From NCBI GenBank assembly GCA_965645245.1, contig OZ287068.1, forward strand, positions 2,294,001 through 2,358,000: a stretch of 64,000 nucleotides of DNA, read 5' to 3'. Shown here in pieces: positions 6,416-48,582 of the stretch. A model generated the notes under the pieces. It saw nothing but the letters and a program-made list of their open reading frames with translations, made no database searches and had not been told where the DNA came from. Each line of letters opens with the position of its first letter. Positions within the stretch are counted from its first letter, which is position 1. The translations under genes were made by a program, and so were the position numbers. Origin of the DNA: Massalongia carnosa. Taxonomy: Eukaryota.

Positions 6416-8570
6416 TGACCAGACTTCCCTAAGTTGGTTAGTGAAGTCGGAGCAACAAGACTAACTAGTTCCAGTACGTGCTATATTGCTTCCAATTGTT
6501 TCCCAAGCACGCGGGTGAAAAAAAAAGGGCAAGGTGAGCCGAAATTCCCCCACCAAAACATACCCTTTTCTTCCCTTTTTCTTCCCCATCTTCTTCCCCA
6601 TTCAACATTTCAATTCGTATGACCATTCAGCCCTAATTACCTCTTCCAATCGTTTGGGCATTGATCGAACTCTTTCATTGATGAATTCCTGCGTCACCCG
6701 TTCCCATCCATCCCTAGTCAGCTGCTTCAAGCTGACATCGTCCTAATGAGGATACTTTCGAACATGCTGCTTCGCTGGCTGCCAGCAACTTTCTATAGGG
6801 GAAAATCAGGTGATGAGGCACAATTGAAATAATGCTCTAAATGATGATCTTCCTTCCATTTCTTGACGGCATTTCTTGTCTTGCTCGTGCCATGACCAGA
6901 GTCTCCATCTTCTTCAAGTACGAAGTCATCCCCACGCTCCAGCCAGGGCTTGACGACGGGGTCAAGAACGGATTCAATATACACCTGATGAGTCATTTTA
7001 CCATTGCCGTTGCCCGGCACGTCATAAAAGATAACATCCGACTTGAAAATTGTAGCCAATTGCAGCCCAGCTATTTTTTTGTTTTCGATCTTTCTCAGGA
7101 GGCGGGTCACGATGCTGTATGCAATCCCAACGATATCGTGTTCTGGGCTGACGAATGATTCGTAACTGTCCTTCCGGCCCATATCCAAAATGAATCTCAT
7201 CACTAAATCGTACGCGATCCCATTGCTCCGGTTTGGGATATCTGGTCAGCATCATGTGAGCAAATTCGACCCGTCTTTCCATAGGTGGGTCGGCCAGCCA
7301 TCCCTTGACGCAGGCCAGACATTTCTCATAGTTTAGAGCAGCCGACATAACATTGTGCATTGTACGACCGACAACGTCGGCCCCAATCTCCATAGCCAAT
7401 TGTTCCCATGTGTATGGTTTTCCTTCCAACTGTAGCCCCTCATCTTGTAGAATGTGATCTGCCTCCTGTATTTGTGCTTCCGTGACTTTTGATTTGCGAC
7501 CGCGTGTCTCAACGAGCGTTGAATGATGTCTTCTTCTAGATGATGCTCCGTTTCGAATGATCTTATAGCCCTGTCTCTCGCTTCGAATGCCAAATTGCTG
7601 AAAAATCTCTCGAGGATCGATGGAAATGCCTTTTGCAAGAAGAAATTCATAAGCTCCCTGCACCTTGGCCTTTTGAGGGTATCGTAGTGGGATGGCATTT
7701 GAAATGTTGAATGAGGAAGAAGATGGTGAAGAAAAAGGGGAAGAAAAGGGGTAAGTTTTGGTGTGGGAGTTTCGGCTCACCTTGCCCTTTTTTTTTCACC
7801 CGCGTGCCAAGGTCCATTTGCGACCCCAGTATTTGAAATTCTTGTCGGTCCTCACGAAAAACTATTTTATGCGCACGCCGGGATCCTGTATGAATTCGAG
7901 AGCTTGCGAGCGTTGGTTAAAGGGGAGTGGACCGAAGAAGCAAATAGATTGGAAAACTTTAGATGTAGATTGTGTGGCGAAGCTTCTGCAATGGATGTAC
8001 ACAGGGGATTATGTTCCAGCACTAGTGAATCCTGGTACGGACGGGGGATCAGAGTCTACCGGTTGTCAGCAAAAGTATTTCTTTTTCTTCAGAAATTGAA
8101 CCAGCTAAACCATACAAGACGTATGAAATCACATTTCTTACGCACGCAAAAGTCTATATGATCGCGGATCATTTGGTTCTACCGGATCTCAAGCGAATGG
8201 CTCTAGAACGGCTTCAAGAAGGCTTATACAAAATAAAATCCCCTATAGCGCATTCGCGAGTGATATCCTTCTTGGTGAAATTGATCAAGTACGTGTACAC
8301 TAACACCTAACTCACGGCAAAGGAGAACCTTTACAGAAACTAGTATCGAAGTTTGCGGCCAAGAACGCCTCGACCTTGGAAAGCGAAGGCATCCGGCTTC
8401 TACTGGAGGATGGTGGGGATTTTGCGGTGGACTTGATGACGGAACTGAGGCAGCGAATCGTCGGCTACGAAAATTCGGATAAAGATCACACGGGGCCAGG
8501 TTTTTTTGGCATATCAAACGGATCACTTTTCGCTTCAGTGGCTCCATTTGGATCCTCAATTTCCAGTTGA
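6416..8570 (+). pseudogene. BTB/POZ-domain protein pseudogene interrupted by a Tc1-like element (5' boundary approximate)
   Basis: Downstream of the TE: PFATPVFEILVGPHEKLFYAHAGIL, VAKLLQWMYTGDY, THAKVYMIADHLVLPDLKRMALERL and LLEDGGDFAVDL, spread over several frames with stops. Confidence 0.7.
6508..7806 (-). mobile_element. Tc1/IS630-like DNA transposon, defective; ~110-bp imperfect TIRs starting CACGCGG; 5-bp TSD CCAAG
   Basis: TIR CACGCGGGTGAAAAAAAAAGGGCAAGGTGAGCCGAAA at both ends; CCAAG at 6503-6507 and 7807-7811. Transposase starts at 7698 with [16 protein letters not shown] and SPDF(S)PIE; frameshifts near 7677, 7045 and 6800, plus a TAG in place of Trp. Confidence 0.9.
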
Positions 8571-10286
8571 TTCATCAGCATCCACTGCCACACCAACGCT
8601 CCCTCCAACGGGTGTATCTTTGGATCGAACACTCCAAGCAGAGCAGTATTGTTCGGATTTTGATGGTTGGATTTATTTCGTAGAAGTCATGTTCTTAGGA
8701 CGTTATACAAGAAACCTCTTCGAAGCTAGTTTGCACATGGGATCAGAAGGAGATATTTGCGCTTCATCTCACAACGTCACATGTGAAGCGGATAACTAGC
8801 ACCAAATAAACGCCCATGTCTGCCTCAACAGGTTCATAAAGGTAGATTTTGTCAAATCGCAGCTCTATTAGAACCTAACGCGTAGCAGTAGCATAAGTAC
8901 CTTCTATCCAACCCGTTCAGCCGCAGAGATACACGCATAGATACCTATAGCTCCTTCTCAATCCATTTACTAAAGCCAACTAAACTAATCAACTAGCCAG
9001 CGAGCTAGCCAGCCCAACCACCCATCACCCAACAAACCCAGAAAGACAGTCTGTCAGTCAGTTCCATACTTGAAGAGATACGTTTAGTCAAGACGAGACG
9101 GACGGAACCGTTGTCGACTGACCGACCGACCGAACGAGCTATCTCCCAGAAGTTCTCCAAGCTCTCTCTTGGAAATTTCGTGAATGGGGGCTTAGGCGTA
9201 TATTGTATGTATGTATACGTACATGTATTGATACGAGAATAGATAACTTACGTAAAAAGGATTTGTCTAAACCGCATCCCCTTCCCCCCTCTCTCCCTCT
9301 TCTCTAGATACATGAATACATAAACGTGGACAGATTTTTATGGTTTGTTTGGATTGGATTCGAATCTGGTTAGTTAAATCTAAGTCTCGTTTCTCAAAAT
9401 AACGCGAATCTCCGAATCTAATCCCTTCTCCTCTTCTTTCTTTTCTTTTCTTTTCTCTCTTCCTGCGCTGTCAAACAGCACCTCAACAGCATCATAGTTT
9501 TCTTCTCATCACCCCCCTTTTCTAGAAAACCATGCCATACATCTCATCTCATCTCATCCAAAACCACACACACACCTATCTAGTACATGCAGACAGTAAG
9601 TACGTTCAAATCTTCCGCCAATCCGTCAAAACAAAACATCCTCTTAGAAACGGAAATGTAGAGTAGAGCAGTGATCTCCATATTCGCTTTGTTTTTTTCT
9701 ATCTCTAGAGAAGATAACTACGAGTAAGTAAGTATGATTCAAAAAAGAAACTCGATAGATTCATATCAAAGCGAAGCCCCTATTTACAAAGCCCTCTCTA
9801 CTCCCGGAACAGAAATTAGTATCTATCACTACTGCTGGTTCAGTCAGTCAGTTGTTCTTTTCTCTCGTTCTTCATCCATCCATCCACTCATTCCTCATAA
9901 TTAGTCGGTCTCCCATCCCCGGACTTTCTAGAATCTCTCCTCGAAACTCCTCCTACTCCTCCCTTCCTAGAAAAGAAACACTAAATAAAAATCTCTCCGA
10001 AAAACCAGAAAGCTCGAAAACATGAATAAGGTTAAGCATTGTTGTTGTTTTACTACTATTCAAGATTCAAATACACGTTTTTAAGCTTCCCGATCCCGCA
10101 ATGGTAGACGTGTCTTACGATTAATTTTTGCTCGGTTTCGGTCTGTCCTCGTCCATCTCGTCCGTTCGTTCGACCGACCAGTCGACTTGTCTATGTATGG
10201 AAAAATAAGAGTCTATCTCGGACGAAGAACGAGAAAGTAAGAAGGTCAAAAGACCGTGAAGTGAACTTTAAGGGTATTTTAGATAT

Positions 10287-12235
10287 TGCCCCACACTTTC
10301 GCTCGGTCGGCCTCGCTTAGTGCTAGCCAGCCATACAGCCAGGACCAGCCATACAACCAGGACCAGCCATACAACCAGGACCAGCCATACAACCAAAACC
10401 TTCAAATTTTTACCCACCACCTTTGAAAATTCATAATCCACCACCATCATGCCTGAATCTTATACTATAGTTGAGAATCGTATTTCAAAGGCAATTGACG
10501 CCTTGTATGTACTCGCGCAAGAACGCCAAACTAAGTGCAATTGCGCGAGAATTTAACGTGCCTAGAGAAAGACTTCGTTCTCGAGTCAAAGGAGTTCCAT
10601 CCAAAACGAAAGTACGAGGACTGCATAATCAACGTCTGAAACCCGATCAGGACCTGGCCCTACGTCTATATATTCTGAAACTGGACTCTTGTGGCATACC
10701 GGCCCGCTTGCACATGGTGAAAAGCGCTGCAAACTCCATCCTTCGACAAACTGCTCCCGATTCAGTGTCTCCTCCTCCTCTCGGCTTGCATTGGACCAAA
10801 AGATGGTTGAAACGTCATCCGGATCTTCACAAGGTTAAACGCAAGCCTCTAGCTGCTGATCACAAAAATGCGCATGATTTGGAGTTGTTTAAGGCACATT
10901 TCGAAAAATATCAAGAAGTGGTGAACAACTATGGCATAATCTCGGACGATCAGTGGAATTTTGATGAAACGGGTTATCGTATCGGCATGGCACGAAATGA
11001 TTGGATAATTACTGCTGATAATTCTCGAAGATCATACAGTGCTGATCCATCGAATCGAGAATCGCTGACTGCGGTGGAGTGTATCAATGGGGCCGGGCAG
11101 GATATTCCCCCTTTTCTAATTGTGACTGGCGTTAACATACTCGCTCCCTGGGTAAAAAATGACCTGAATGATGATGTTGTCATCTCTACGTCTGACTCGG
11201 GTTGTACCAATGATTGGTTGAGCTTGCAATGGATAAAACACTTTGATAAACACACTGAAAAAATCCGGAAAGGGGCTTGGAGACTTTTGATTATGGACGG
11301 TTTTAGGTCGCATAATACTCGTGAATTTATAGAGTATTGTGAAAGCAAAAACATTGTTCCATTCGGATTACCTTCTCATACCACACATCTGTTGCAGCCA
11401 TTAGATGTGTGTGTGCTTCAGCCTCTGAAACACTGGCACTCCGAGGCCGTCAATGAGGCAATTCAGAACGGAGACGAAACGTTCTCCAAAGTCGAATTTT
11501 TTGCTGCATTTAACTTGTTTCGATCGCGAGCGTTTAAATCATCAACAATTAAAGTCCGCCTGGAAACAAACGGGCTTGATTCCATACAATCCGGAAATTG
11601 TTCTCGATAAAGTTCGAGAACTTCTTCCTCGTCCTCGTGAATCAACTCCAACTCCAACTCCGTCTCATATAGCACCTCAATCAGTACAAAAAACTCCTCG
11701 AATCGTGCGACAGTTGGCCGAGGTAGCCACAGAAATCATGATGCATCCGGCTTGTTCTGGTGATCTTGTAAAAATGGTCAGCATATTTGTGAAAGGAGCT
11801 GTGGCCGAAGTACGAAAAGGCGATCTTCTCGAACAACGCTGGGAACAGCAAACCGCGGCCCAGACTGCTCGAAAAGCTCGTAAACGAGAGTCCAATAATA
11901 TTCTCCATCGCGGAGGTGTACTTATTGTTGGAGAGGCCCATTCAATGGTTCGAGACAGGGAGGAGGTAGAGGAGGAGAGAGAGAAAGAACGAGGGGTCGC
12001 ACGGGAAAAGCGCTATTGTACAGCTCTCACCAAGGTGGCTGGACAGTCAAAAGCGCATAGAAAGATGCTCATGAGGCGAATGAATAGTCACAAAAGATGG
12101 ATGGTGATCATGAAGGAATTGTTGGAAAAAACCCCGATGTATGTAGAATAGTTGATTTTTGGTTGTATGGCTGGTCCTGGTTGTATGGCTGGCTAGCACT
12201 AAGCGAGGCCGACCGAGCAAAAGTGTGGGGCACGG
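10287..12235 (+). mobile_element. Fot1/pogo DNA transposon; frameshifted transposase 10449-12151
   Basis: HTH/CENP-B-like N-terminus with WNFDETG, IMDGFRSH and LQPLDV. Inverted ends TGCCCCACACTTT.GCTCGGTCGGCCTCGCTTAGTGCTAGCCAGCCATAC; the outermost bases and TSD are degraded. Confidence 0.9.
10327..10395 (+). repeat. 18-bp subterminal tandem repeat CCAGCCATACAACCAGGA, ~4 copies (~2 inverted copies at the right end, ~12160-12192)
   Basis: Read directly from the sequence. Confidence 0.9.
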
Positions 12236-12420
12236 ATCATAATGTAACTATTTCTTATTACTTCGGTAAAATTCTCCTCTCTTGAGGTCATATTCAACGG
12301 AAAGGACAAGAGAAAAGAAAGATTCGATGAGAGTAGCCCTTTGACAAGCGCGTACATATATCGTAACCCATACATCATAATTAATACATCTCTTTTCCTC
12401 ATCTTTCCCCTTCAAATAGC

Positions 12421-15013: not shown

Positions 15014-15210
15014 GTTTCCGTCGCGCACTAACGATAAAGACCGAGGAGCTGTGTCATCGTGCTCGCCCCCTCCAGAGGATCTGCATGGGTAATATCATAA
15101 AATCGAAGACTCCAAATCTATAATCCAGTTCTTATGCACTTCAGCAACCATGAAAGATCCAATAACCTAGCAGTATTAATGACGCTAGGCCAGCGTGCTC
15201 TACAGTTTCA

Positions 15211-15639
15211 ATAGATTACTGTCATTGTTAAGATGAACAATTGACGGCACAATGTTAAAACTACCACGGAGGTGGCTGCTTATACATAGCAGTCATGGCA
15301 GCCTACAGGGCTAAGCGAGTATTCTAGCAGTCATTGCGATAGCATAGGTGCATAGGTAAATATCTTCTAGGCGAACAGTTGGAACCGGCAGACTGATCCG
15401 CACGAATTTAAAATAAATACCGTATTAATAAATGCTAATCAGTCACGGTCTTCAAAAGCCCCAATATCAAGGAATAGAAAACGCATGATCCGAGCGTATG
15501 GTAGCTATTTTTTTTTAAAAAAAGGGGGTAAAGGAGTGTTGCCTACAGGCTACTATGACTACCATAAGCAGTCACCTCCATAGCATTTTCAACATTATGC
15601 CGTCAACTATTCATGTAACAAAGGCTAATGACTATCTAT
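15211..15639. mobile_element. Degenerate MITE-like element with ~100-bp imperfect inverted repeats
   Basis: 15211-15310 (TTGACGGCACAATGTTAAAA..GGAGGTGGCTGCTTAT) matches the reverse complement of 15541-15639 (TTGACGGCATAATGTTGAAAA..GGAGGTGACTGCTTAT). No TSD recognised. Confidence 0.6.
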
Positions 15640-31699: not shown

Positions 31700-31933
31700 C
31701 ACGCGGTGCGAAAAATAGTTGACACACCAAAAATATAAAATAATTATGATAGGCTACATCGTTAAGTAATACATTTCCAAAAAGTTAAGGTGAATTTGAA
31801 CACATAACTCTATTACTCTATCAAGTCTGTTTTACTGGTTCATCTGTTGTTGATTTTCTATATTATGTTGAAGCTTTGTAGTTTTATGCGTACTGACGAG
31901 TTTTGGTGTGTCAACTTTTTTTCGCACCGCGTG
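31700..31933. mobile_element. 234-bp MITE with 33-bp TIRs starting CACGCGG; 5-bp TSD GTGGG
   Basis: CACGCGGTGCGAAAAA(T/A)AGTTGACACACCAAAA at both ends; GTGGG at 31695-31699 and 31934-31938; AT-rich non-coding interior. Confidence 0.9.
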
Positions 31934-33550
31934 GTGGGGTACTAGTACCCTGTACAGTCCTATCAAGCACAGACCTTTCCGCAGTCACGGCAGTTTCTAG
32001 TGCCGGGGCCGAGGTTGGCCGAGTCATGTGACACACCCCTGAGCACTGTTCATCCGTCGTTCGTTTTGCTTCGTCTTTTTCCAGTCTTTCGTTCAGCAGA
32101 GCCACTCTTTTCTAGCTAGTCAGCCATATAGTCCATTCAGCCGTTGTACATATATAAGCTGACACATGAGGTGACGGTCTTTTTGCTTCGTTTCTGTCTT
32201 TTGATGTCGCCGTCCAGCGTCTTCGGCAACGGCTCCATTGGTTCATCACGACATGCGCTACCTATCATCGCCTTTTTATGATGGACGTAGTGGTGCTTCG
32301 TAGACAATCAACTACATTAGCATATAGCGAAAAAGCCATCTATGCTTTTCATGCTTCATTTACACCTCTGCCTTCGCCTCAATTCCTGTCTCCACTTCCT
32401 CATCTCTTTCTTTGCTCTTCTCTCTCTTCATTTCTCCCCTCCCTAAACCTAAAGAACTAACGACTTCTTTTAGGAGCAGCAAAGAAAGGATAATTGAAAA
32501 GAAACTGAAAGTATGCATGTAGATAGATAGGTATGTATATATACGAAAGGCAAGAAGCGAGGCGAGGGAATATGGGAGAGGGGGAAGGGAGAGAGGGAAG
32601 GGGTAGAAAAAGGAGTAGAGAGGGGGGGGGGGGGGGGTAAGGAACAAGGGATAGGAGATAGAGAATATCGACTAGGAATTGGGGTTTTTATTTTTTTTTT
32701 GAAAGCGATTATTGAATGAGAGAGAAGCGAAGAGAAATGAAAAAAAGAAATGAGAAATGAGCGACTGATAATTGATGATTGAAAGATGAAGGGGTTTTTG
32801 AAGAAGGAATAGATGAAAAAGAAAAACGAATATGGAGATGGAGAAGAAAAGGGAAAGAAGAATCGTGATTATGAAGGGGATTATCTGAATTTGGAAAGGG
32901 GGTTTCTTCGATAGGAAGTTTGAGGGGGGAGTTGGGCCGGGGTGAGGTGGGGGTAGAATGGGGTGTCAACTGTGTTATGATCTACCTAGAGACTAGTCAT
33001 AGAGACACTAGAAACGAATACAATCAAGATGAAGAAGAAAAAGACCATCGACCACCTGAACCTGCCCCTATATATCTTCTGTCGCGCTAGTACCCATGTG
33101 GTATAGTCGCGATGGAATCTTTTTGTGAAAAGTGCTTGCGTGCCGAATTAACCGAGGTTGCGCCGGATAGAATCGTAAGAAGTTGAACAGTATCAGTGTC
33201 AATCTTAGTCTTGCAAATACATACCATATAACAAGTTTTATTTTATTTTTAGATAAGTAAATAAATCAATACCTAATACTGAAGCTTCTTTCGTACAGCT
33301 TCGCTTTTCCTTAACTCGTGTCTTTAACCCTCGAGCCGGTGAGAAGGGGTGATGAATGGCAAAGATGCGTGCTAATAGAATGAGGTGCGACGTGATAGAT
33401 AGATGGCCAACTGAGCAGTGAACACCCACAAATGATCGAATGAGTCTACGACTACATGAACATGTGATGAACTCGACTAGACGACTGCACAAATGAGTGT
33501 GTTGTCACTATGACTATGTGACAAAGATGAAGTGTTGAGACGCTGTGTTG

Positions 33551-33612
33551 AGATGTATATGTAGATGTAGATGTATATGTAGATGTAGATGTAGATGTAT
33601 ATGTAGATGTAT
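33551..33612. repeat. Hexanucleotide microsatellite (AGATGT/ATATGT)n
   Basis: About 10 units visible. Confidence 0.9.
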
Positions 33613-36600
33613 GTAAAAATGTGAAGGTGCAGGAGAAAACGCCAGCAAAAAGCCCCTTTTATCCCGACTCTCGGCTGCACACAGGCCTGTCCTGTCACCT
33701 GATCATCTATATAGCACGTGTGACCCCGCCACACCGGGTTTCGGGCAGGAAGCGAAATGGTTGCTTGATTGCTTAGGTGGTTGGTTGGATACGTGTGTGA
33801 GTGTGAGAGTGTGTAGTTGGTAAGGGAGTGGGTTGAGGTTGTCGAAGCGGGCGAGGGAAGGAGGAGGATATGAAGATGAAGATGGAGATGGCGAGGGGGA
33901 AAGGGACGGGTTGTTGTGAAAAGGGGGTTTTGATTTTTGGGATTAAGGTTGATGGGCTGGTTGTTTATAAAGGGTAGGATGTCCGATGATTCATTCGAAT
34001 GGGGATTGGGTTGGTGGAGGAGGTTTTTTTTCTTCGGGTGTAGGTTTTTGCGGTGCGTGTTTGACGAAAGTGATGGAGGGCTATTTTGGAGACGGTGAAG
34101 ATAGTTAGTCGTGGGAAAGGGTCTGAAGATAACTCTTCGTAAATGAAAAAAGAATCATATTAAGAATTTGTTCATTGAGTTTCTTTAGATTGAGATGGAT
34201 CCAAAAGATAGGAGGTTATTGTCATGTCGCTTAGATAGGTCGAGAAACAAGATGAGTGATAAATAGGGTGCTGTAGTCGCCTTGAAGATAAATGAAGGTT
34301 TTATTCTCTTCGTTGCGCATATGTTGCGGGGAGAGATTCGATGAAGATCGCTAATCTGCTTTCTTATCATTAGCATTATTAAAGTAAGTATGAGCTTCGT
34401 CCAACTGTTCTTTTCGCTGGCCTGGATAAACAAAGCTGACGAAGACTGTAATTAACGCATTTTTCGTGGTTGAATGTACTTCTTCAGTCCTTTGATTGCT
34501 TCAGTTATGGGCGCGGCTACACCAGGTCAAATAAGAAGGAAATGTGCCCAGGCTGAGAACAGGGCGGAAATAACAATGAAAGGAGTAAAAGCTCTAGAAC
34601 TCTTCACGTGCTTCAAGAGATCGTTGAGAGGACGCGGCCGTAAAACAAGCGTGCATGCTCAGAGATGAATGAAGCACCGGACCTTGCCTTGAAATGTTGG
34701 AATTGGAAAAAAAAGCAATTTTGACTTTCCGTCGCATTCTCTCGGAGATTTTGACATGACACGAGACCCTGCGAGGATTGGCGCTGATGACAAGGAACAC
34801 CAGAGGAAGCAACAAATGAGATGAGATAAGGTGGGGAAACGCGCATGCGACGATCCTGCGGGTGATAAAAAATAACGACCCGTAATTAGAAGTACGCAAG
34901 ATGTCCGGCCCGTCATCCTGGAACGATTATTACCACGGCGCTTGACCTGAAATCCTTGGATGCCGACAAAGTAGCCAATAGGAATTGAACAGAGGTGTCT
35001 TAAATACAACAATAGCTGCAAGATGCCTACGGGAGTTCAAACGTAAGAGGATAAAATTGTCAGGATATCCAGGAAGCGGTGTATCGTGGTTGCTCGTTGG
35101 TGGTTGCTGAACCTATAGCGCCCAGCTATTCCTGGGGATAATGTTGTGATTACTTGCATTGATGATCACATTCAGCCCCATTCGGAAGGCGGCCGTTCAT
35201 ATTATACGCAGGGTTTATTCTATGAAACTTCACTAAATTCTCATTTTCAGTTGGTTATCGCATCATTGACGATCATGCTTTCAGCCATCAAGGCAGCTAA
35301 ACGCTATGGCATGCAGTGCGGAGGGAGAGGGGAAGAAGCCAACAGAAAAAGGGAAATTTGCTACAGTATAGTTGCGAACGGGCTAGAGGGACACGGGATG
35401 TTTTCGAAGCGGAATTAGGCTCATCGGTCTGGAAAATAGCAAGAAACCAACGCAGGGGTAATTGAGGATGTAAGTAAAAAGGTCAATATAGGGAACGATG
35501 AACAGGGAACGGGATTCTACCAGTATCTGATCATGATCTTGGTTGGCTTACCATGCCCACTACGCTTCATTGCAACAAACCCGTTGTAGGAACCCCTTCG
35601 GTGCATTGATATACCTTGACGGAGAGAAGAGATTTGATTTGTGTTAAGGCTGAGATGGATGGATGATATCTGTGTATCACTTTTTTTTCGGTTCATCCTT
35701 TCTTTTCCTGCTTCCCTTTTCTCCCTTTTCTTGACGCCGCCGGTGAGAGTCAGGAACAAGATTGAGGCGGGAAAAGAAGATCAATTAGGAAGCACGTTTC
35801 TCCGTTATCCGTGTTTTTAATACCACTTGCCGAGCGTCTAGAGTATCGATTACCGATTGATTACATTCTAGCGTCACGGTACGGAAAGAAAAGAGAATGA
35901 GCTTAATTTGATCTCCCGTCCCGTCCCTCCCTTATCCTTCTCAACCCTCGACCCCTTTTAAATCTCTACGCACGTTTTCATAATAACGATCATACGAGTC
36001 CTAGAACAAAATACACTGATCCATCTTAGCTGCTGGTTGATGATTTAGTACGAGTTGCACGCACAACTGATTGAGTCCAATTAAGCCTAAACATAGCATT
36101 GCTTGATCGACCCAGGAACGGCTGATCGTCTCGTTCGCTAGCTTGTCGTGCTTGTCATCTCCAACTCTCGGCCGTCCCAAACTAAGAAAATAAGCTTCTC
36201 GCGCGCAACGTTGGCCGAACCACCAAATGGCTGGTTTCACCACTGCGCCGCTTCGCTGATTTGCGCCTTGAACATGGCCATTTGGAGTCGGGTTTGCTCG
36301 TGCTAGAGCCGAACCTTGGTTTCACTCACGGCCCTCTGAAAGGGTTAGATATGCTTTTGTAATGAAAACCCACTCTGCGTTGCTCTGCGCTTCCGAACCG
36401 CTGTGATTTCAGACATTGCTGCACTAAGAAAAAGGCTTACGCAGGGGTCGTTGGAGCGCGGTATTGACTATAAGATGCTTCTTCGCTCATGTATCGCTCT
36501 CTCATCCAACTTTTCTCATAAATGATATCTCCTACCGTCACTCTTTTCCAAGTCGTTCATACTGTTCATTCGACTACACGTTCTTTTTGAAATCAATCCA

Positions 36601-36675
36601 TCCGCCTTCATTGATTGAAGCCTTGTCCCTTCTTTTCTCTCATCGCCCGATCCATCTCCACGGCTTTCATCCAAC

Positions 36676-38302
36676 ATGGTCGCCGTCAAAGCATGTGCAC
36701 TGGCTGCCGTAGCGTTTGTGACCCAGGTCGCTGCTCATGGCATCATTGTCGCCACCACGGTCGATGGCGTGACGTATGTATTGCTGTATGACCTATAATC
36801 TTCCTCACTAACAAGCACACAGTCACTCTAATTTCAATCCTCACGCCTGGAATCAAGATCAAAAAATTACGGCTGGATGGACCACCGACAATAAGGACTA
36901 CGGCTTTGTCAAACCATCTACCTATGCAAATGGGGATATCATCTGCCATAAGGGTGCCACGCCAGGCCAGCTCTCCATCAAACTCAAGGCGTGTACCACC
37001 ATGCATCTTCAATGGACTCGTTATGTACCTTCCCATCACGGTCCCGTTATGCACTACATGGCCAACGCCCATGGCGATCATCAAAAGGTCGACAAATTCG
37101 CCCTAAAGTGGAATAAAATCGATCAGCTTGGCCTGATCGATCCCCTCCATAGCTGGAATACTTCCGCCAGCGAACCAGGGGGTTACTGGGCCGCAGACCA
37201 GCTGATCATGCAAGGCGATCGATGGGACTTCACGGTGCCCTGCTCCATCGCCAAGGGCAAGTATGTTGTGCGCGCCGAAACCATTGCGCTACACAACGCC
37301 ATGATCAAGGACGGCGCCCAGCACTACCCGCAGTGCATCAACATTGAGGTCACTGAAGGTGGTACTAACGAACTTTTGGACGGTACCGTTGGGACGGAGC
37401 TCTACAGCCCTACTGATCCGGGCATCGGAGACTTGAATATCTTCAGTACCAACCCCATCTTAACCAACTATGTCATTCCCGGACCCGAGATCCATCAGTG
37501 CGGTCAAAAGGGCTACGACCAAACGCCAAAACCTGGCTCTGCTCCCATCTGGAAGGGACCTCAAACCGCCGAGGTTTATGGCATGCAGCTCAATAGGCAG
37601 GGAGAGTATGAAACCGTTGGTCAGGTGGGCGTTGGCGGTGGCGGTCCGGACGGCGTGACATATGGGAACACGCCAAACTCCGGGACGGGGAATGCCCCCG
37701 GCACAACTTCCACTACGCCTACTACATTAGCTCCATCAGGTAAGAACTAGTCTTGTCCTTGAGTGGACAGTTTCCCTTGTCTTGTGACTCTTACATCTGT
37801 CTGCAACATTCACCCTGGCGAAGACAACGCTAACGTGTTTCCAGCTTCCACAACCCCCTCCAACCTCCCCGGTGACAACTCCACCTATCACTCTACAAAC
37901 ACATACGATAACAAAACCCCTAACAAGAACTCCTACGACAAAAATACTCCCAACAAGAATTCTTATAATAACAATACTCCCAACGAGAGTTCGTCTGACA
38001 ACAATACTCCCAACAAGAATACCGACAACACCGACAAGAGTATCTATGGCAATCAAACTCCTGACCAGAAAACCGACTCAGAGGCAACCGGCTATACCGC
38101 TGACAAAACCATCACCAAACCCACTGGCTACACCACTTCCACGGACAACACAGTCCCCGTTAATACTGCCAATCTCGCCGATGCTAGCGGCGATGAGTCG
38201 GTCACAGGGCTCCTGGACACGATTACCAAGTGCGTGGAGAAGTTGAGGGCGAAGCTTGTCAAGACTGCCAGGCGGCACGCAAGGGATGTCGGGAAGGCTT
38301 AG
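36676..38302 (+). CDS. AA9 (GH61) lytic polysaccharide monooxygenase with a disordered C-terminal extension; introns 36774-36822 and 37740-37844
   Basis: Signal MVAVKACALAAVAFVTQVAA followed by His1 (HG). Motifs DIICHK, SHHGPV, GYWAADQLI, ETIALH and GAQHYPQC; tail ends RRHARD. Confidence 0.92.
37905..38040 (+). repeat. 30-bp (10-aa, DNKTPNKNSY-like) coding tandem repeat, ~4-5 copies, in the AA9 tail
   Basis: YDNKTPNKNS YDKNTPNKNS YNNNTPNESS SDNNTPNKNT in ORF 37763..38302. Confidence 0.8.
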
Positions 38303-41300
38303 GGTTAGCCTCTGCGGGGCCTTTAGACGTTAGAGGGGGAAGGGCAGGGTGGCGGTGGTTAGAAGGTGTGAACGACTACACGATCCGAGGGAAACGAACG
38401 CGCCGCTCTTGACGAGCGCCTGCGGACGCAACGACGCGAGGACGAGAAAAAGCGATAAGTGGAAAGGTAATCGCTTCTTCCGGGCTCTGTCATAATTATT
38501 GTACATACTCATATTTTCATCTCCAACAATAACCAGGGTGCGCTGGTCGTCTTTCTTGCGCAAAACCTCCCGTCAGGGCCGTAGCTTCCTTTTTTTCCGA
38601 GCTTCTCCGTGAATACGAAGGACGCGTTAGCGGTTACACTTGATGCGAGCGAGCAGGGGTTGTGGATGTTATGAGATGGGCTTGTGCTGTCGATGAGTGT
38701 GGGGGCGGTGGAGCGCTGTGCATAGGTATCGCACCCATCAAGAATTGAGTTTTTCGCATACAAGGTTGGCGGGGTTGATGAATGCCCCCCTTCGCAGCGG
38801 ACTAATGGATCGATCGATAGATAGGGTTAGCATGCCTTACGGTGTTCGAAGACGGGTGGGTAGTAGGGTAACTCGATAACTCCCGATCATCTTATCTCCC
38901 AATTTCCGGTTTTTTCTCACACGAACACTTCTTCTTTCCCCTTTTTCTTTCACTGTCTCAGTTCTGTTCATCCCTCCTCCTTTGTCTTCTTATTGTTCGT
39001 CTTATTCACCAGTTGAAATGTTAGACGTTGTTAATGATGATTTATCGATCTTTGTTGTTATCATCATCATTATCTTAATTATCAAGTCTTTTTTTTAAAT
39101 AAAAAAGAGAATTTGTTTCTTAGAGGACGACGGAATGAATAAATAAATAATTAGGATAGAGTGATATAGGAGAAAAAGATTTAAGCCAGAAACAGAAGAC
39201 GAGAAAGAGAGGGGTGTGTTTAGGAATTTAGGTAGGTGGTAAGTGAGATGGATAGATGTCCTTGCGCTTGAGGATAGGTATGGTTGATTTGATTTTTTTT
39301 TCTTTTCTTTTCTTGTTTCCGTTAAGCAGGTATCAAGCAGGAAGCATCAAGCCCATCTGTCTCATCAACAACAACATCATCATCAGCAAACAAAAAAACA
39401 GTTCACAACAACTGCAACTAAACGAATGAAAAAAACATCCGTCGTGAACGATTTTCTTCGAAACCCTGAGGCCCAAAGAGCCCCCTTATATTAACTATTT
39501 TCTCAACAATCAACAAAACAGACTTGCCTACATAAAAAACTTTTCTTTAACCCACTCAACAGGCAAAAACATGGGTATCTCGTTTCGTCTTCCATTTCCG
39601 ATTGTCGAGTTCCCCCAGAGAAAAGCGTCCATGATGATAGAATTGCCTGTCGAGGTGATGATGATGATGATGTATTCATACTCCGATATGTCACCGGTCG
39701 TAGGCCGGCCCATGCGGGCAAAGCTATCTAAATTATGTTACATAGAAAACCTTTTTCAAGTGTAAAAACCATATCCCATGATACCTGTCCGATGTGATAC
39801 CGGGTCGACGTCGGACAGGAGACGCAGAGCGAAAATATTGTGAGAACTGTGACGTCATGTGAGATGGAAAGGAAAAGAGAAGTGAAACTACTGTTGATTG
39901 TACAATAGTGTAGATGCCAGTGAGAATTGGGTCAGTAGACCTGTTTTCATTAATCAAGCAGTTAATATCTTTATAGTCTTTGATGTTTCGGTGAAAGTCT
40001 TGAATGACGCTAAAGTTATGTATCTCTATACACGCATTAAACTTTTAGTGTGTAAGCTGCTCGGGACATAGCATGGTGACATGCTCTCTATCCTACAGGC
40101 TGGATTCAGAATACCCCAAGCCTGCAACAGCCTGAACCGAATTAACGTAGCTATAGTACTTGTATGCGCACGCAGCTGCGTATCATTAACTAGCGCAAAT
40201 CAAGGACTTTCGGTGTTTACCTCCGTACAGTACATATCCTCGTAGTAATCTCATTCTCATGCCATCAAAAACATTTTCAACAACCGAACTCGAGAAACCT
40301 CCCAGGCGAACAATCCCCCTAACCAGAACACCAAAGGTGCTGGTTTTCCGATCTTACTTCTTCACGAAAGCGGGGAATGAAAAAAAGAAGCCAGGGTTGC
40401 GGGGCGCTGGGAGAGATCCCGAGAAGCCAGAGATGGAAAATCCGATGCTATTTGTGCTTGGGAGGACTATGTTGTGTTGTTGTTGTGGTTTGCTGCAAGG
40501 TAAGCAGCTATCTAGACTATGGATGATACTTCGGATTGCTTTGTGTTGGGTTATTGGAGTTTGAGCTTGAGTGTGGAAAGGGGGTTTGATGGTAGGGTGG
40601 GGATATTTTTTCTTCTTTTCTTTTCGCTTTTTTCTCTCTCTTTCTTGTGATTAAGGACGTCAAGGCTTTCATCTAATGAATGAGAGCCTCGATAATTAAC
40701 GGTTTTGGACTCGTGTTCTCTATTTGACTGACAAAAGAAATCATGATGCGGTCATAGAGAAAGGGTTTCTCCACTGAGAAAACCTGAAGTGCGGGTAAGC
40801 GTGGTATCAGCAACTCTCAACGACGAACCTGGTAATGTGTCCTATATTCGACAAGAGAATAAAGCTATTTATAGATGAAAATGAAACGAATGATATCTAA
40901 GTACGGAGTACACAGTTTTCTATTTTCACCATTCCAAATAGAGGAATGAAAACAGCGAGGAAACCACAAAAATTCATCTCGATGTTCAGCCTTTGCAAGA
41001 CCTCCGATGAAATTGTTGAAGTGCATATAGGTTGTTTTCTTTTGAAAGAAAGTTAAACCATGCGAATTAGTAAAGACTTCAATGCAAAAAATACCGTCGA
41101 CAAAAAAAAACCTGCGCCATGTTTCAAAGCGCGTGGGAGATATTCCGAGGTGATGCACGGTTGCAAAGAAACCTGCCTTGCCTACCGTCAAATTACCGCT
41201 TCCAACTAGTCTCGGAGTTGCAAAATATCTCATGTAGAGACCGATTCATCCAGAACCCGATGAATGGGGGTTTTTCGTGTCGGACTGTTATGGTCGCAAA

Positions 41301-41487
41301 AAGTTGGGTTGTGAAATGTGCCTTACAGTCTACAAAGGCTGAGCGACCACATGTTTCGGTCGCGGCTTAGTGCTCGGAGGTTTCAAGGCGGCTCGATATT
41401 TCATAAAAACGGAACTTAGCAATATAAAGGCTGACCTGCTACCAAGAATTCCATTCAGTCCAATCTCGAAAACTCGACGTCGGCGAT

Positions 41488-42205
41488 ATGCGGCTCGAGG
41501 CTTTTCTTTCCTTCGTTTTCCTATTGAAAATAATTGCGAGTCCACTTCCGGCGGAGTCGCAACACCGAGACGTTACGGCGAATCGTCTCCTAGGACTTCG
41601 TTCCCCCAGAGATGAGGCCATGAGCGTAAATCTATTGACACCCGAACCAGGCAGTATAGTCGGTACTGGATATCCTGCGTACAACGAGATAAATGGACCT
41701 AGCCGTGATGGTGATATCTCCTTCGCTCCATCGGAAAGCTTCGCCCATGGAAACCAGCAAGGAACCGCAAACTTCATCGCAACCACATTCTCTCACCGGA
41801 CGAGCGACCCTAGTAATATTTTATTTGGCAGCCCTGCATGCGGGGACAAGGAAGCTTTCTGTTGCCCGGGGGCACCTTTAACGAACGACATGGAGGGAAA
41901 CAGCTGCACAGAGCGTAAGAGCTACCTCTAATGTCTCATCATGCATTCCCTGAAACTCTTCTAAATAGTGACCTATTTGGATTTTTTCGAAAAGACGTCG
42001 CCAACTTGCTCATCAGACCACCTATTCTGTTGTCACAAAGACATAGGCGTAAGTTTTTCCATTTAAGCCAATGATACTACCGGATTGGCCTCGATTCGTC
42101 GTCTAATTAACATTATATGTCGCCCAGCTTGTCGGACTCTTGGCACAAACATGCCATGTGGCTCCTCCCTATGATCCACTTTCGGTCGGGCCTTTATGGA
42201 ATTAG
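41488..42205 (+). CDS. Secreted protein with C-terminal 8-Cys hydrophobin-pattern domain; introns 41915-41968 and 42049-42127
   Basis: Signal MRLEAFLSFVFLLKIIASP; the spliced product has C-X6-CC-X13-C-X15-C-X6-CC-X13-C. Confidence 0.78.
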
Positions 42206-45205
42206 GTAATCAACTCTTGTAAAAGAGATGACGCTGGGTATGGATTCAACAGTGTCAAAAGTCTTTGGCCTCCCAAAAACAAGGGAGATGATCAGATGCT
42301 CCAAAATACCAGTTTTGCTGAAATGTGGGTGGCTTCATTATATGGCTAAAATATATAAGTACTATTTTTGAACGAGAACGCTGCTGCTTCGCTGGCACTA
42401 AGTTATGTTGAGGGCCCCTCCTATAGCGGCCTTTTCCTGGCAGCACTGAAGAGCATTATCTCAATTTATACGATTTATTGAAGTGAGTGAATGAAAGAAG
42501 GGTTTCTCAATACTAAACTTCGAATTAATGATGATAAGGAGAAGAGTGTTAGAAGGCCGCCTCTATATCTCTCGTTCTCCTCTTTTTGTTCAAATATTTG
42601 GCCCCTCCCCCTATTGATCAATTCAAGCCCTCTTTCCTTATTTATTCTTTTTGCGAAAGCATCCTTAATGGTCATTGATGAATTCTGTCACGGAACTCGA
42701 AGAATGCATAAACCTGTTACTGAAAATTAATCTTTAATAAAAAAAATCGGTTTCGATGATGGAATGTCCAGTCGACGGCAAAGTAAATCAAAACATCCCA
42801 TGCTTTATACGACGAAATCGCTAGAAAGGTCGAATCAAGACCTCACAGTTGTTGTGGTCTCATTTGAAACATGGACAGATACTAAGTGCTGATACACAAA
42901 TTCTCAAAAATCTAGAGATTAAATCTCGCTCTTCTTCAAAACCGTTCGTTCTTCAAGGATTCGCTTTGGTGGTGCTGGACGACAAATTTGTTATCATCGT
43001 GTCATCTATTATCGCTGGATCTGTGATTTACTGAGAAAGAAAGCGCCCTATAAAGCGGAATAGGAAACTGAATCAAATTATTACCTTACAGGAAGCGTAG
43101 GGATCGCTGGCGTTGACAAATTATGTAAAGTAAGAGTTATTGTCTAGAAATCGGTAAGAGGGATATCAGTCTCTTACAGCCTGCATGCATATGTACATCG
43201 CCGGTTAAACTTATATTACTGGACATTGGCACCTCCCAGAGTCTGCCAGTCAGCGCACTTTTGTCAACGGCGTATTATTCTGAGCTTCTGTACTGCTGTA
43301 CCCTAAAAGTACAGCATTCCCCGTTGTGCTTCTTTCAGTACAGGATCGTTGGGTCAGCTTGCATTGTTGATATGCTCTGCCTTCAAATATCCCTGCCATA
43401 GGTGCGCTCGAGAAAAGTGGAAAAGACTGCCCGTTATAGAGAAGCTTTACGTTACTAGAATCTTTGGGTGAATAGAGCCGAAGGCCCTGGCACATCATCT
43501 TATAATCTAGTTGGACCTTTCTTAGTGCCGCTTATGGAGTACGGGTGGGAAGAAGCCCTGATTAGCTTCCAGCAAGTCACTGAGTCAAAAGAAGGCCTTC
43601 GAAAATGATATTAGAAGGCATGTGATCTCATAGTTTTCAATCTATCCTACAGGCGATATCAGGGCGCTTGGCACTTGATAGACTCGCGTATCCGCTGAGA
43701 GCATAATTCTTTGCTACTCAGGATGAAATTAGGCAAAGTCAAGGAATCGAAGCTCGAGACCTATCTTTAAGAGCATGATATGCTAAGTATGCCTTGGTCA
43801 TTGAACGGGGAAACAAGTCTCTCATAACAGCGCTGACCACCTCACCGGCAGAATCCCATCGTGCAATAGTTCTTCTCGCTCGCTCGCTCGCTCGCTAACT
43901 TTGTAAACCTCAATGCTTTACCAGTGGTCAACTCTGGTAATTGAGCAATTAACGAATGACTAGAGAACCTAGTGGCATCGGCGAGGAGAGGACATCATCG
44001 TGCAGAGCTTGTCTCCTTGTTGCAAAGCCATGCTTGAGGCAACTCCTGTACGCGGAATCTCGAGACCTTTGAGAACCCTTTACACGGACCTCGAGATCTC
44101 TGCTTATCTATAAATGCGCGGTTAGAGCTTTCACGTGCTGGCTTCAGCTCCGGCTTCGGTTATGTTATGTCTGTGTTGCTGGTTCTATGACTGGCTCTAC
44201 AGAATCCTGCTTCCCTTTCGGACTACTCACTGTTAACAATGTAGATTTGGTTCATTCAATCAAGCTCGCCGTAAGAGAGATCAGAGATGTGTCTTCTGAG
44301 CGGTGATCAATCCTTTAATGTCTATTTCTTCAGTATGCTGTATAGCGAGAATCCAGCATACCCTTCGAGTGACGTTTTTTCCCTTGATGGCATGTTTCGA
44401 TATGGGTTTTCCCATTAGACTTCTCGCTCGATGTAAATGCATAATAATCTGTTTCCGGTTTAGTCAACGTATTCTTCTCCCCATCGAAGCTGCGAGATGA
44501 TCCCTCTTGTTTAATTCCAAGTTTTCTATCATCGACGGAGTCCCTAGCTAGGGAAGGCGAATCATTATGGATCGGTGAATGCGCGATGAATAAACATGTT
44601 TTTCTAATGTCATGACTGTGTCTCACTTGTCTGATTATACACACAAAAGAAAAGTCTTTAAAACCCCAGTCTTTCTTATCTGCTGATTTCCATCTATCGG
44701 TTTGATCGGCGATACACTAAACGACTCCCGCAATCTCGAGTCCAATATCCTCTAATGAGATAGATATCCTGACGGTATGTGTCATAATTACCAATAGCGA
44801 AAACAACATAATATTTGCTCCCGTTGTTGAGAAAGACAAGGGCCATTATAATATATAATCCGAACAGCTACACCATAAGTAAATTCGCTGTAAGAAGCTC
44901 GTCACCTGACTTTTCGTGCAAATAAATAAATTCCAGCTCGATCTCTCGCGAATAAAAGTCGCGCTAGTTTACTTGATCGGAAAACGTAAACTCGAATCCT
45001 TTTCTTTCCTGTTCATAATCGAAAATCACAAATAGACAGATGTGCAGGACATCAAGATAGCAAACAATTTCAATGATTCTACGTTAACTTAAGTCAGTAG
45101 CAAAGCCTCACCAGATTAACTAGTTAACTAGCGGCCGCTTAACCATGCGAAACCCGAAGTAATCGTGTCAAGAAACTAGTAAAGTTAATCGAAGCGAGTC
45201 GCCTA

Positions 45206-47066
45206 CTAGTGTCCGACACCTCAGTGACGCATACAGCTCAGTGACGCACTTTTCCCATTTTACCTACCACTCTTCACCACGTAATCACTCCACCAAATCA
45301 TGTCCAGTTTATCTTTCAGTAAGGAGAATCGAATTCTTGAAGCTATTGACGCGTGGGACACGGGTGATTTTCGAAGTGTGCGCGCGGTAGCTTTGGAGTA
45401 CGACGTGGACATTCGTACTCTACAGAGAAGACTTAATGGAGGTGGTTCGAAAATCGGTCGTTCTGCCCCCAACAAAGCTTTGTCTGATGAACAAGAATTA
45501 GCTCTTTGTGAATATATTAAAATGCTCGATCAAGCCGAACAATCTGCCAGACTTCCAATGATTCGGGCGGCAGCAAATTATCTACTTCAAGAGGCTCATT
45601 CAGACGTTTTCACTCCTTCTCCTCACGTCAGCAATGCCTGGACCAAACGTTTTCTGACTCGACATCCTCAATTCTTCAAACGCAAACAAAAACCACTAGC
45701 CGTCGAGCAAAAACATGCGCACAACGTCGATGATATATTGGAATATTTCGAGACATATCGGGCTGCTCGCGAGGCTCTTGGAGTAGCGGATGAGGATATT
45801 TGGAACATGGACGAGACAGGCTTTCGAATTGGCTTTGGGCGAGCTCATTGGGTTGTTTCAACTCATTCTAGAAAGTCTTTGCTGTTGACGGACTCGGACA
45901 ATAGAGAATATATCACCTCGTGTGAATGTATTAGTGCAGGGGGGCGTGATATTCCCCTCATGATCATAATCGCTGGTGCATGGGTGCTGGAGAAATGGGC
46001 CCAACACAATGACTTGGATGATGATATTCTCCTGACCACCAGTCCTACCGGCTATTCCAATGATGATTTAGCTCTCGATTGGTTGAAACATTTCGACAAA
46101 CACAGTCGAAAGGGGCAGGTAGGTGCATGGCGCATGCTCATCATGGATGGATATGGATATCATACGACATTCGAGTTTTTTACCTATGCCAAACGAAACA
46201 AAATCGAATTGTTTCGTCTTCCACCTCATTCCACACATCTCACTCAGCCATTGGATGTAGGATGTTTTCAGCCTTTCAAACATTATCATTCCGAAGCCAT
46301 TGCTCAACTGATGCGGGGTGGAGGGTCTGATTTCGATAAACTCGACTTTCTGTCGATTTTTCAGAACATGCGAAATCAAACATTCACGTCAACTACCATA
46401 CTAGCTTCATTCAGAAACACGGGTCTGGTGCCTTATAATCCAGAAGTGGTACTCCGCAAAGTGGAGGCTATTCAGACCCGTAGGCCTGCTACCCCGCCCC
46501 CACTTCCATCAGCTCCATTGCTCGCCAGAACACCTTCCACAGCCAAAGAAGTTGTTGAATATGGAAATAAGCTTCGGAAAAGCCTGAAGAAGTACAATGT
46601 TTTGAATGCCGAGTGGGACTGTCATGTGGAACGATTTGTGAAAGGCTCCATCTCCAGTGCTCATGCACGTCAGATTTCAGAGCGAGACCTTCGGGCCAAT
46701 CAGATGCTGTCCATCGCGAAGACAGCACGACGAAAACTTGATGGAAAGGTGGCCCAGAAGGGAGGAGTCATAACCGTACGAGATGTACGGGCGAAGGTTA
46801 AAAAACGCACTCAGAATGAGGTGGAAAAGACCAAGCAGGCCTATGAACGTGCCGTACTAGCTGCTGAAAAGAAGCAATTGGCCCTGGATCGAAAGTATAG
46901 AGCAATCGCTCGATCTATGCCCAGGCAAGCAAAGCTGTTTTACCAGCGTCATAGTCAATTAAATTTTACATAACCATTGTTGTCCACAAATTGTATGTAA
47001 AATAGTAGGTAAAATGGGAAAAGTGCGTCACTGAGCTGTATGCGTCACCGAGGTGTCGGACACTAG
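45206..47066 (+). mobile_element. Fot1/pogo transposon with intact transposase; ~60-bp core TIRs flanked by TA; inverted repeat extends outward to 45162/47104
   Basis: TA-CTAGTGTCCGACACCTC(A/G)GTGACGCATACAGCTCAGTGACGCACTTTTCCCATTTTACCTAC at both ends. Confidence 0.92.
45300..46973 (+). CDS. Fot1/pogo transposase (HTH + DDE_1), 557 aa, uninterrupted
   Basis: Catalytic motifs WNMDETG, IMDGYGYH and QPLDVG in a single ORF. Confidence 0.93.
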   Translation: MSSLSFSKENRILEAIDAWDTGDFRSVRAVALEYDVDIRTLQRRLNGGGSKIGRSAPNKALSDEQELALCEYIKMLDQAEQSARLPMIRAAANYLLQEAHSDVFTPSPHVSNAWTKRFLTRHPQFFKRKQKPLAVEQKHAHNVDDILEYFETYRAAREALGVADEDIWNMDETGFRIGFGRAHWVVSTHSRKSLLLTDSDNREYITSCECISAGGRDIPLMIIIAGAWVLEKWAQHNDLDDDILLTTSPTGYSNDDLALDWLKHFDKHSRKGQVGAWRMLIMDGYGYHTTFEFFTYAKRNKIELFRLPPHSTHLTQPLDVGCFQPFKHYHSEAIAQLMRGGGSDFDKLDFLSIFQNMRNQTFTSTTILASFRNTGLVPYNPEVVLRKVEAIQTRRPATPPPLPSAPLLARTPSTAKEVVEYGNKLRKSLKKYNVLNAEWDCHVERFVKGSISSAHARQISERDLRANQMLSIAKTARRKLDGKVAQKGGVITVRDVRAKVKKRTQNEVEKTKQAYERAVLAAEKKQLALDRKYRAIARSMPRQAKLFYQRHSQLNFT

Positions 47067-47111
47067 TAGGCAACTCGCTTCGATTACTAGTTTCTTGACA
47101 CGATTAACTAG

Positions 47112-48397
47112 CACGCGGCTGACAAAAAAACCGGGACACCAAAATTTTCACCCCACCAGAATCTACCCCTTATTTTCACTTTGCTACGTACAGTTACCAT
47201 GCAATCAAATCAATAATCAATAACCAGTCATCTTGCCTTCACCTCGAATCACCGCCTCTAGTCGATCGGGCATACTAGCTACTTTCTCATTGATAAAACC
47301 CTGAGAAATGTGGCACCAACCCTCATAAATCAGCCCTTTTGTGGTCTCATCGTCCCAATGGGGATATTTGTAGAGCTCCTGCTTGACCGGCTGCCAGCAA
47401 TTTTCAATGGGCGATAAAGCAGGAGATGAAGGGCAGTTAAAATAATGTTCGAGCCCATGTTCCTCCTTCCAAGTGCGTACGATGTTTGATTTGCCTGGCC
47501 CATGCCCTGAATCACCATCTTCCTCCAACACGAAATTATGCCCTTGATCAAGCCACGGTTTGACTATAGGATCTAAAATTTGATAAATATAAACCCGTTG
47601 ACTCATTTTTCCATTCTTATTGCCCGAGACGTCGTAAAAATGAATGAAAGACTTGAAATCGTGCCCTGCGGCCGCCCAACAATGATGCCTTTTTTTATTC
47701 TTCTCATCCGGCATGTGCTCCTCTTGTATGCAATCTTGACAATATCGTTGGCCCGGCTTGCGAATGATTCGTAGCTTGCCTTGTGAACCCCATCCAAAAT
47801 GAACTTCATCACTAAATCTGACTCGATACCAGTCCTCCTTTTCAGGATATTTATTCAACATGAATGTGGCCCATTCAACTCTTTAAGCTGCTGTTCGCTC
47901 ATTGACCCAGCCCTTCTTACAAGATACGCACTTATGATAATCCATTGTCCCCATTGCTCTTTGTATCGTACGGCCACTGCAATCCAGCCCAACTTCGTAG
48001 CCTAGCTGCTGCCACGTTAAAGAGCGAGCTTCAATGCCTTCTTCTTCTAAAATTTGTTCCATCTCTCGAATTTTGACGGAAGAAATCTGGGATTTTCTTC
48101 CTCTAGTCTCCTTGTGATCAGGATTATTGTGTAGTTGGCGAGAAGAATAGTCCTCATTTCGAAGCATTTCATAGCTACGTGTGCGACTAACGTTGAATGT
48201 TCGAAAAACATCCTCCTTATAGTACGGTAATTTCATACGATCGGCGAAATGAACCGCTGCCCGAACTGATGCCTTGGTGGGAATAGAATAATGAGCTAAT
48301 AGAGCTCGAGTTTCAATGTTTGGAGTATGTGGGCGTGAGTCATCCATGATTGAGATGTTGAGAATTTTGGTGTCCCGGTTTTTTTGTCAGCCGCGTG
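47112..48397 (-). mobile_element. Tc1/IS630-like transposon (DD37E); 39-bp TIRs starting CACGCGG; 5-bp TSD ACTAG; ORF 48347-47217 with one in-frame TAA at 47883
   Basis: TIR CACGCGGCTGACAAAAAAACCGGGACACCAAAATT; ACTAG at 47107-47111 and 48398-48402; motifs [16 protein letters not shown] and SPALSPIENCW. Confidence 0.92.
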
Positions 48398-48582
48398 ACT
48401 AGTTACTCTGAGATCTCGAGGCGATGCTAAGATAACTTTTCCTATGCTCTACTCTGCACAACAGCCGACGAAAGTCATATTCGTGTCGTCCAGAAACTGA
48501 TTCGTTTTCTGTTCGGGTTAGCGACACATAACTAACATTAGCTGCGATAGTCATGTTGGTGAGGATGATAGTAAATATTACA

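Follow-up and report, generated by a model that had tools for sequence, protein, structure and literature searches.

A stretch of 64,000 nucleotides from Massalongia carnosa (assembly GCA_965645245.1, contig OZ287068.1, positions 2,294,001 to 2,358,000 of the forward strand; hereafter the window, whose own numbering is used below) contains three transposon insertions with shared terminal sequences. The heptamer CACGCGG occurs three times on the plus strand of the window (at 6508, 31700 and 47112) and each occurrence has a CCGCGTG partner downstream, the partners ending at 7806, 31933 and 48397. Two more CCGCGTG sequences, starting at 7500 and 57852, have no partner in the window. The paired heptamers delimit terminal inverted repeats (TIRs), and the elements are abutted by short direct repeats with the appearance of target-site duplications (TSDs). 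The features are as follows.

6503 to 6507, no strand: left TSD copy of element 1, CCAAG
6508 to 7806, minus strand: element 1, a decayed Tc1-like transposon of 1299 bp with ends CACGCGGGTG...CACCCGCGTG
6626 to 7699, minus strand: remnant of the element 1 transposase gene, aligning from 7699 to 6626 with residues 2-355 of the intact relative P0003, with two frame changes and in-frame stops
7807 to 7811, no strand: right TSD copy of element 1, CCAAG
31695 to 31699, no strand: left TSD copy of element 2, GTGGG
31700 to 31933, no strand: element 2, a non-coding miniature inverted-repeat transposable element (MITE) of 234 bp with an AT-rich core
31934 to 31938, no strand: right TSD copy of element 2, GTGGG
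47107 to 47111, no strand: left TSD copy of element 3, ACTAG
47112 to 48397, minus strand: element 3, a Tc1-like transposon of 1286 bp
47217 to 48347, minus strand: transposase gene of element 3, 376 codons, DD37E, with one in-frame TAA (47883-47885) and matches to DDE_3 and HTH_Tnp_Tc3_2
48398 to 48402, no strand: right TSD copy of element 3, ACTAG

The TIRs of element 1 extend over about 106 nt and match at 93.5% (6508-6613 and 7699-7806), those of element 2 over 33 nt at 97% (31700-31732 and 31901-31933) and those of element 3 over 39 nt, also at 97% (47112-47150 and 48359-48397). Within the TIRs of all three elements, an A-tract appears after about 10 bases and is followed by a ACACCAAA-like motif, (A)CACCAAA. 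The abutting pentamers are exact direct repeats, different at each element; three exact 5-mer matches would arise by chance about once in 10^9. Element 2 is classed as a MITE because of its small size and lack of coding capacity. Its ends are most like those of the full-length element in locus L026, one of the metagenome loci described below.

Element 3 retains a single frame, read from 48347 to 47217, of which the TAA codon is the sole break. The product is 69% identical to P0003. It matches the Pfam domain DDE_3, and a second match, to the helix-turn-helix (HTH) domain HTH_Tnp_Tc3_2, falls below the curated cut-off. Of 32 aligned members of the family, all match DDE_3 and 18 match HTH_Tnp_Tc3_2 (best E = 3e-10). 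Comparison of a family profile with solved structures gave the Sleeping Beauty catalytic domain (5cr4, E = 5.4e-16) as the sole relevant match. In that alignment SPDLSPIENCW and a second motif pair with the Sleeping Beauty triad motifs, and the family has three extra residues after the second aspartate motif; SPxxSPIE is found in the window transposases. An AlphaFold model built on 45 sequences (mean predicted local distance difference test score, pLDDT, 81.6) has two helical bundles preceding the catalytic domain and aligns to full-length Mos1. Its best fold matches are full-length Mos1 transpososome chains and the Sleeping Beauty catalytic domain (target-normalised TM-score 0.75-0.78), and it also matches SETMAR. 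Spacing in the catalytic triad is 37 in element 3, counted by hand on the translation, and 38 in element 1 when read across the frameshift. A motif search located the three positions in 106 family proteins, of which 53 have a spacing of 37, 35 a spacing of 38 and 18 other values. The protein is one of about 360-375 residues, with an N-terminal Tc3-type HTH and an RNase-H-like DDE catalytic domain, mostly DD37E or DD38E. The layout of the elements, a single transposase gene between short TIRs in about 1.2-1.5 kb, is that of the Tc1 family. An initial annotation of this DNA had described three insertions starting with CACGCGG, followed by an A-tract and a motif and each enclosed by its own exact 5-bp duplication, and a Tc1/IS630-type transposase with D37E spacing (about D38E after frameshift repair). 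The paired ends, the coordinates, the domain and fold matches and the residue counts bear it out on each of these points.

A scan of metagenome contigs yielded 79 related loci with flanks, in which the outermost TIRs were placed by script and then by eye. Forty loci gave 41 two-ended insertions; together with the three window elements these make 44 rows, and merging of rows with the same flanks left 39 independent insertions. The other 39 loci were dropped because both ends were not placeable. They comprise 31 loci with no TIR pair or one recognisable end within the available DNA, four left-truncated copies at the L006 site (L007, L019, L020 and L037), three loci with degenerate ends (L025, L027 and L047) and one whose contig begins at the element end (L042). 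An exact 5-bp flank repeat is present at 24 of the 39 independent insertions. When the left flank of each insertion was paired with the right flank of another, 3 of 1482 pairs showed a 5-bp match. Near-identical copies sit in different pentamers (L001 in CCTGC, L004 in ACCCC and L010 in GCTGG; likewise L055 in CCAGC and L057 in ACAAG), and the five bases are therefore target sequence and not part of the element. At L012 four of the five bases match between the flanks, and at L003 an identical 5-mer is found on both sides, shifted by one base. The 5-bp cases range in identity to the query from 68% down to 43-45% and are spread over several deep branches in a tree of intact proteins.

The duplication of TA is the rule for the superfamily: the passages of PMC10045372 and PMC4054914 that treat the group known as IS630-Tc1-mariner (ITm) describe it as generating "TA" duplications in general. 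TA is also enriched near the insertion sites studied here. Both facts would favour the view that these are ordinary TA-duplicating Tc1/mariner elements with misplaced ends and that the 5-bp repeats are coincidental. However, none of the 39 insertions has TA on both sides of the TIRs. The TIRs end exactly at CA...TG, and the five bases beyond are direct, not inverted, repeats, matching far more often than in the mismatched-pair control. Moreover, the TA that is enriched stands 6-7 bases away from the end of the element and is no part of the duplication. We therefore give this explanation next to no credence.

Relatives of the transposase are widely distributed. With the element 3 protein as query, 394 of 1205 candidates were homologues at E<=1e-3, from many ascomycete classes, named examples being from Pyrenophora, Bimuria, Clathrospora, Colletotrichum, Botrytis, Rutstroemia and Acephala. 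They are labelled chiefly "Tc1-like transposase DDE domain-containing protein" or "hypothetical". The divergent member L045, used as query, adds Exophiala, Gaeumannomyces, Hirsutella, Drechslerella, Geopyxis, Xylaria, Nemania, Clonostachys and Trichodelitschia. The number of clusters (50% identity) returned by an exhaustive profile search rises from 450 at E<=1e-30 to 3781 at 1e-10 and 13874 at 1e-3. A search of a viral contig collection found no relatives. In all 36 metagenome elements examined, the only long frame is the Tc1-like transposase, and an open reading frame of at least 330 residues is kept in 10 of the 36.

These last data bear on a second alternative, in which the elements belong to another superfamily (Transib or CACTA-Mirage-Chapaev) and the Tc1-like gene is a passenger, mobilisation being due to a different enzyme. 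CAC ends combined with 5-bp TSDs are the signature of Transib (PMC1131882), and a wider CMCT group with CA..TG ends and 2-5 bp TSDs figures in parts of PMC12730594. Yet elements of 1.2-1.5 kb, filled by one transposase frame, have no space for a second gene. The Pfam matches of the family are to DDE_3 and HTH_Tnp_Tc3_2 only, with no RAG1-like or other transposase domain among them, and the ends resemble those of impala and mimp elements (see below). Transib, by contrast, has a RAG1-like transposase and is reported absent from fungi in a passage of PMC5751038. The resemblance to Transib, consisting of CAC...GTG ends and 5-bp duplications, is superficial, the protein being Tc1-like, and we regard a passenger gene as very improbable.

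Alignment of the 24 target sites reconstructed from the exact 5-bp cases revealed a further regularity. Two positions out from the duplication, A is present in 18 of the 24 sites and C or G in none; T occupies the mirror position in 18 of 24. With both strands counted (n = 48), the sites read T(29) A(36) S C(27) C(26) W G(26) G(27) S T(36) A(29). The family thus has a palindromic 11-bp preference, TA-S-[CCWGG]-S-TA, in which the middle five bases are duplicated and TA lies outside. The oriented flank consensus of 77 ends, including those of non-matching insertions, is T42 A51 S C38 C38 W G43 G41. TA stands at -8/-7 from the element end in 26 of 76 ends, against a background of 6.7% at positions -30 to -13 (p = 1.4e-12). 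This preference is new here and had escaped the initial annotation, which had proposed an altered target stagger with no TA requirement and had named TA flanks at most copies as one finding that would contradict it. The stagger holds well beyond the window: the exact pentamers, the near-identical copies in different 5-mers and the complete lack of TA-flanked copies among the 39 insertions all agree with it. As for the TA requirement, the statement stands in that TA is not duplicated and needs correction in that the family prefers a TA on either side, one base away from the duplication.

The 29 ends that belong to insertions without a 5-bp repeat carry the same half-site: 15 have A at -7 and 17 have G at -2. 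This suggests that they are real insertion flanks that were later exchanged or mis-assembled. Seven of the 15 insertions concerned are on contigs shorter than 3 kb, where collapsed repeats can be mis-joined. As a separate observation, the flanks of three of them (L017, L033 and L079) prolong the TIR outward, in the form ..GG|CAC...GTG|CC.. or TGG|...|CCA, so that each end resembles half of a CCWGG site; the two sides differ.

The interpretation that we favour, and in which we place considerable confidence, is that the three window elements are cut-and-paste DNA transposons, two of them full-length and one miniature, that belong to a large, Pezizomycotina-wide Tc1-family lineage of filamentous ascomycetes and make 5-bp duplications at TA-S-[CCWGG]-S-TA targets. 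According to this model, the transposase would bind the conserved TIRs (consensus CACGCGGGTGACAAAAAAA..GG.ACACC.AAA) and excise the element, whose 3' ends would then be joined to target strands at points five base pairs apart. Once the gaps were repaired, five target base pairs of variable sequence would stand duplicated, where other Tc1/mariner elements duplicate TA. The palindromic target would reflect a symmetric transposase dimer, each half reading one half-site; indeed an 11-bp palindrome centred on the duplicated pentamer is the target expected of a dimer with two-fold symmetry that cuts 5 bp apart. The protein family, the ends, the flank repeats and the target preference are observed; the duplication and the staggered cut are read from the flank repeats and the target logo, and the geometry of the dimer is conjectural.

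Several observations weigh against this interpretation. The exact 5-bp repeat is absent in 15 of the 39 insertions, among which L018, L033 and L063/L064 are on long contigs and lack an explanation. The flanks of L045, an intact copy (668-2024) of a divergent subfamily that has CAAGGCCTGG ends, show an exact repeat of 7 bp, CCCAGGT, and L003 and L015 have 3-bp repeats only, so that the stagger may vary. No empty site turned up in the window, in contigs from public runs or in the other DNA compared. Both long copies in the window are broken, and the elements are known here from sequence alone, no transposition having been observed. Finally, the link to impala drawn below is indirect, coming from triad spacing, size and a resemblance of the ends.

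The L045 subfamily may have a different stagger. Its sole other copy, L052, on a 1.85-kb contig, has unrelated flanks. The variable repeat lengths and the 15 exceptions could also be accommodated by a Tc1-like family with a loose stagger of 3, 5 or 7 bp according to site or subfamily, 5 being the commonest length without being a rule. There is precedent for discrete multiple TSD lengths within one family in IS481EU, as documented in a section of PMC10045372. But among the 27 insertions with any exact repeat of at least 3 bp, the length is 5 bp in 24, and about 1 pair in 64 would match over 3 bp by chance. In addition, the half-site kept at the non-matching ends is more readily reconciled with exchanged or mis-assembled flanks than with a cut of another kind. 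A loose stagger appears unlikely to us, if clearly less far-fetched than misplaced ends or a passenger gene.

The search for empty sites covered several sources. Comparison of the window flanks with the window itself disclosed no paralogous empty site. Contigs of four public runs (a lichen metagenome among them) that match the window were placed over 30500-49500, and none bridges 31700-31933 or 47112-48397. Contigs enter the ends of the MITE and stop, one X1 record running to 31726 and records of X1, X2, X3 and X5 resuming at 31906-31916; the joints listed near the elements have sides of 20-52 nt or consist of the TIR itself. With a lichen metagenome among the matching runs, a lichen-associated ascomycete is the most probable host. 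The empty sites reconstructed for the independent insertions gave one junction-spanning match in the available DNA, at L069, where the flank runs into an element-like end. The right flank of L069 (about 2309-2340), just past the duplication, resembles another element end (..CGCGCGGGCTGCAAAA..), which suggests an insertion beside or into an older copy. Two copies lie close together at L035, where members of one subfamily occupy 2410-3701 and 4402-5693, 700 bp apart and in opposite orientation, each with its own TSD (CCTCG and TATGT). These copies have many transition-type changes and no long open reading frame, and look like products of repeat-induced point mutation.

Duplications other than TA exist elsewhere in the ITm group: Tc4 and Tc5 duplicate TNA, TBE1 duplicates ANT and Zator duplicates 3 bp. 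Fot elements duplicate TAA and Fot-like pogo elements TAAA, according to a part of PMC7386202. Such non-canonical elements demonstrate that the length of the duplication is changeable within the group. However, their duplications measure 3-4 bp, and TAA, TAAA and TNA retain T..A, whereas that of the family is 5 bp long, GC-rich (CCWGG) and without TA inside. The pogo/Fot elements differ also in protein, having a DDE_1 domain with a DDD triad and a Tc5/CENP-B-type HTH in contrast to the Tc1-type DDE_3 of the family. With Tc1/Sleeping Beauty (DD34E) and the mariner Mos1 (DD34D), the family shares an HTH and a DDE_3-type catalytic domain, as seen in the sequence match to 5cr4 and in the fold matches; it departs from them in making a 5-bp duplication within TA-S-CCWGG-S-TA, versus a TA target and a 2-bp duplication.

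The closest named relative, as judged from size, triad spacing, ends and host without a tree, appears to be impala, an element of about 1.3 kb. In the portion of PMC7325037 that concerns it, impala is placed in the DD37E group of the Tc1 family, and the impala clade in the tree file of that paper includes Penicillium, Talaromyces, Aspergillus, Rhynchosporium, Cordyceps and Fusarium. A search for the motif EEDGDSGH gave no match in the readable supplement files of PMC7325037. Mimps, the MITEs of impala in Fusarium oxysporum, are 200-220 bp long with TIRs of about 27 bp (passages of PMC3599309; also PMC6131394). Their end consensus, CAGTGGGNNGCAAWAA, is given as TT[TA]TTGCNNCCCACTG and is followed by TA in 150 of 158 matches (same passages of PMC3599309). 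The likeness between the two systems includes the fungal host, the DD37E triad and miniature derivatives that measure about 200-230 bp and have TIRs of about 27-33 bp. Compared by eye, the mimp consensus is similar, not identical, to the ends CACGCGGGTGCAATAA (L021) and CAAGTGGGTGCCAAAATAA (L076), family ends having the form CA...GGGTG.CAAAA. The difference lies in the flanks, impala/mimp ends being followed by TA and those of the family by a pentamer in 24 of 39 insertions and TA-flanked in none. No protein named Fusarium oxysporum or impala was among the matches of the two family searches, with element 3 and with L045.

It is conceivable that the family is the first ITm lineage with 5-bp staggered integration and that it descends from an impala-like, TA-duplicating ancestor in which the strand-transfer points moved apart while each protomer retained its contact with TA outside the stagger. 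We advance this larger claim tentatively, and put its chances at somewhat below even. In the full-text literature no Tc1/mariner or IS630 element with a 5-bp duplication was found, Repbase Reports, Dfam and most subscription journals lying outside its coverage. The matches to "5 bp TSD" concerned a Pao long terminal repeat (LTR) element, hAT5, the CMCT clade and IS3/Ginger/IS481EU; a literature search with the end sequence as text returned unrelated primers only. There is a roughly even chance that a curated repeat library already holds such entries and that the feature has gone undiscussed in print.

Annotation pipelines sort Tc1/mariner elements and their MITEs by the TA duplication, which is treated as a hallmark of the group. 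A widespread ascomycete branch with TA-free, 5-bp duplications would be missed or misfiled. The pairing of CAC ends with 5-bp TSDs is suggestive of Transib or CACTA. With close relatives that differ in stagger (2 bp or 5 bp), it would become possible to compare directly how the spacing of strand transfer is set by a DDE dimer. If the proposed descent is true, it would constitute a natural "stagger switch" in one transposase family and show which parts of the dimer set the length of the duplication. The intact natural copies, with their GC-rich, CCWGG-type preference, could complement such TA-restricted elements as impala, Fot1 or Minos in fungal insertional mutagenesis.

Other repeats are present in the window, one of them adjacent to element 3.

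45162 to 47104, plus strand: pogo/Fot1-type transposon with TA on both sides, TIRs of about 90-110 nt, DDE_1 and HTH_Tnp_Tc5

This element has a stop-free frame of 562 codons (45285-46970, plus strand), and element 3 sits 2 bp past its right TA. Since its duplication is the ordinary TA, the host genome carries both kinds of insertion. A second pogo-type element (10287-12232; DDE_1 and HTH_Tnp_Tc5) has 73-nt TIRs matching at 97%, no clear TA duplication resolved at its flanks and a gene split over two frames (10471-11607 and 11429-12148). A Mutator-like element lies at 53878-56634. Its TIRs, 129 nt long, match at 95%, and an open frame of 560 codons, read on the minus strand (54814-56493), contains MULE, ZSWIM RNaseH-like and FAR1 domains. 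Lastly, the summed contig depth from all four runs over 32400-33670, 39376-40009 and 48252-49500 is from tens to more than 100 times that of neighbouring bins, and these stretches therefore belong to highly repeated families.

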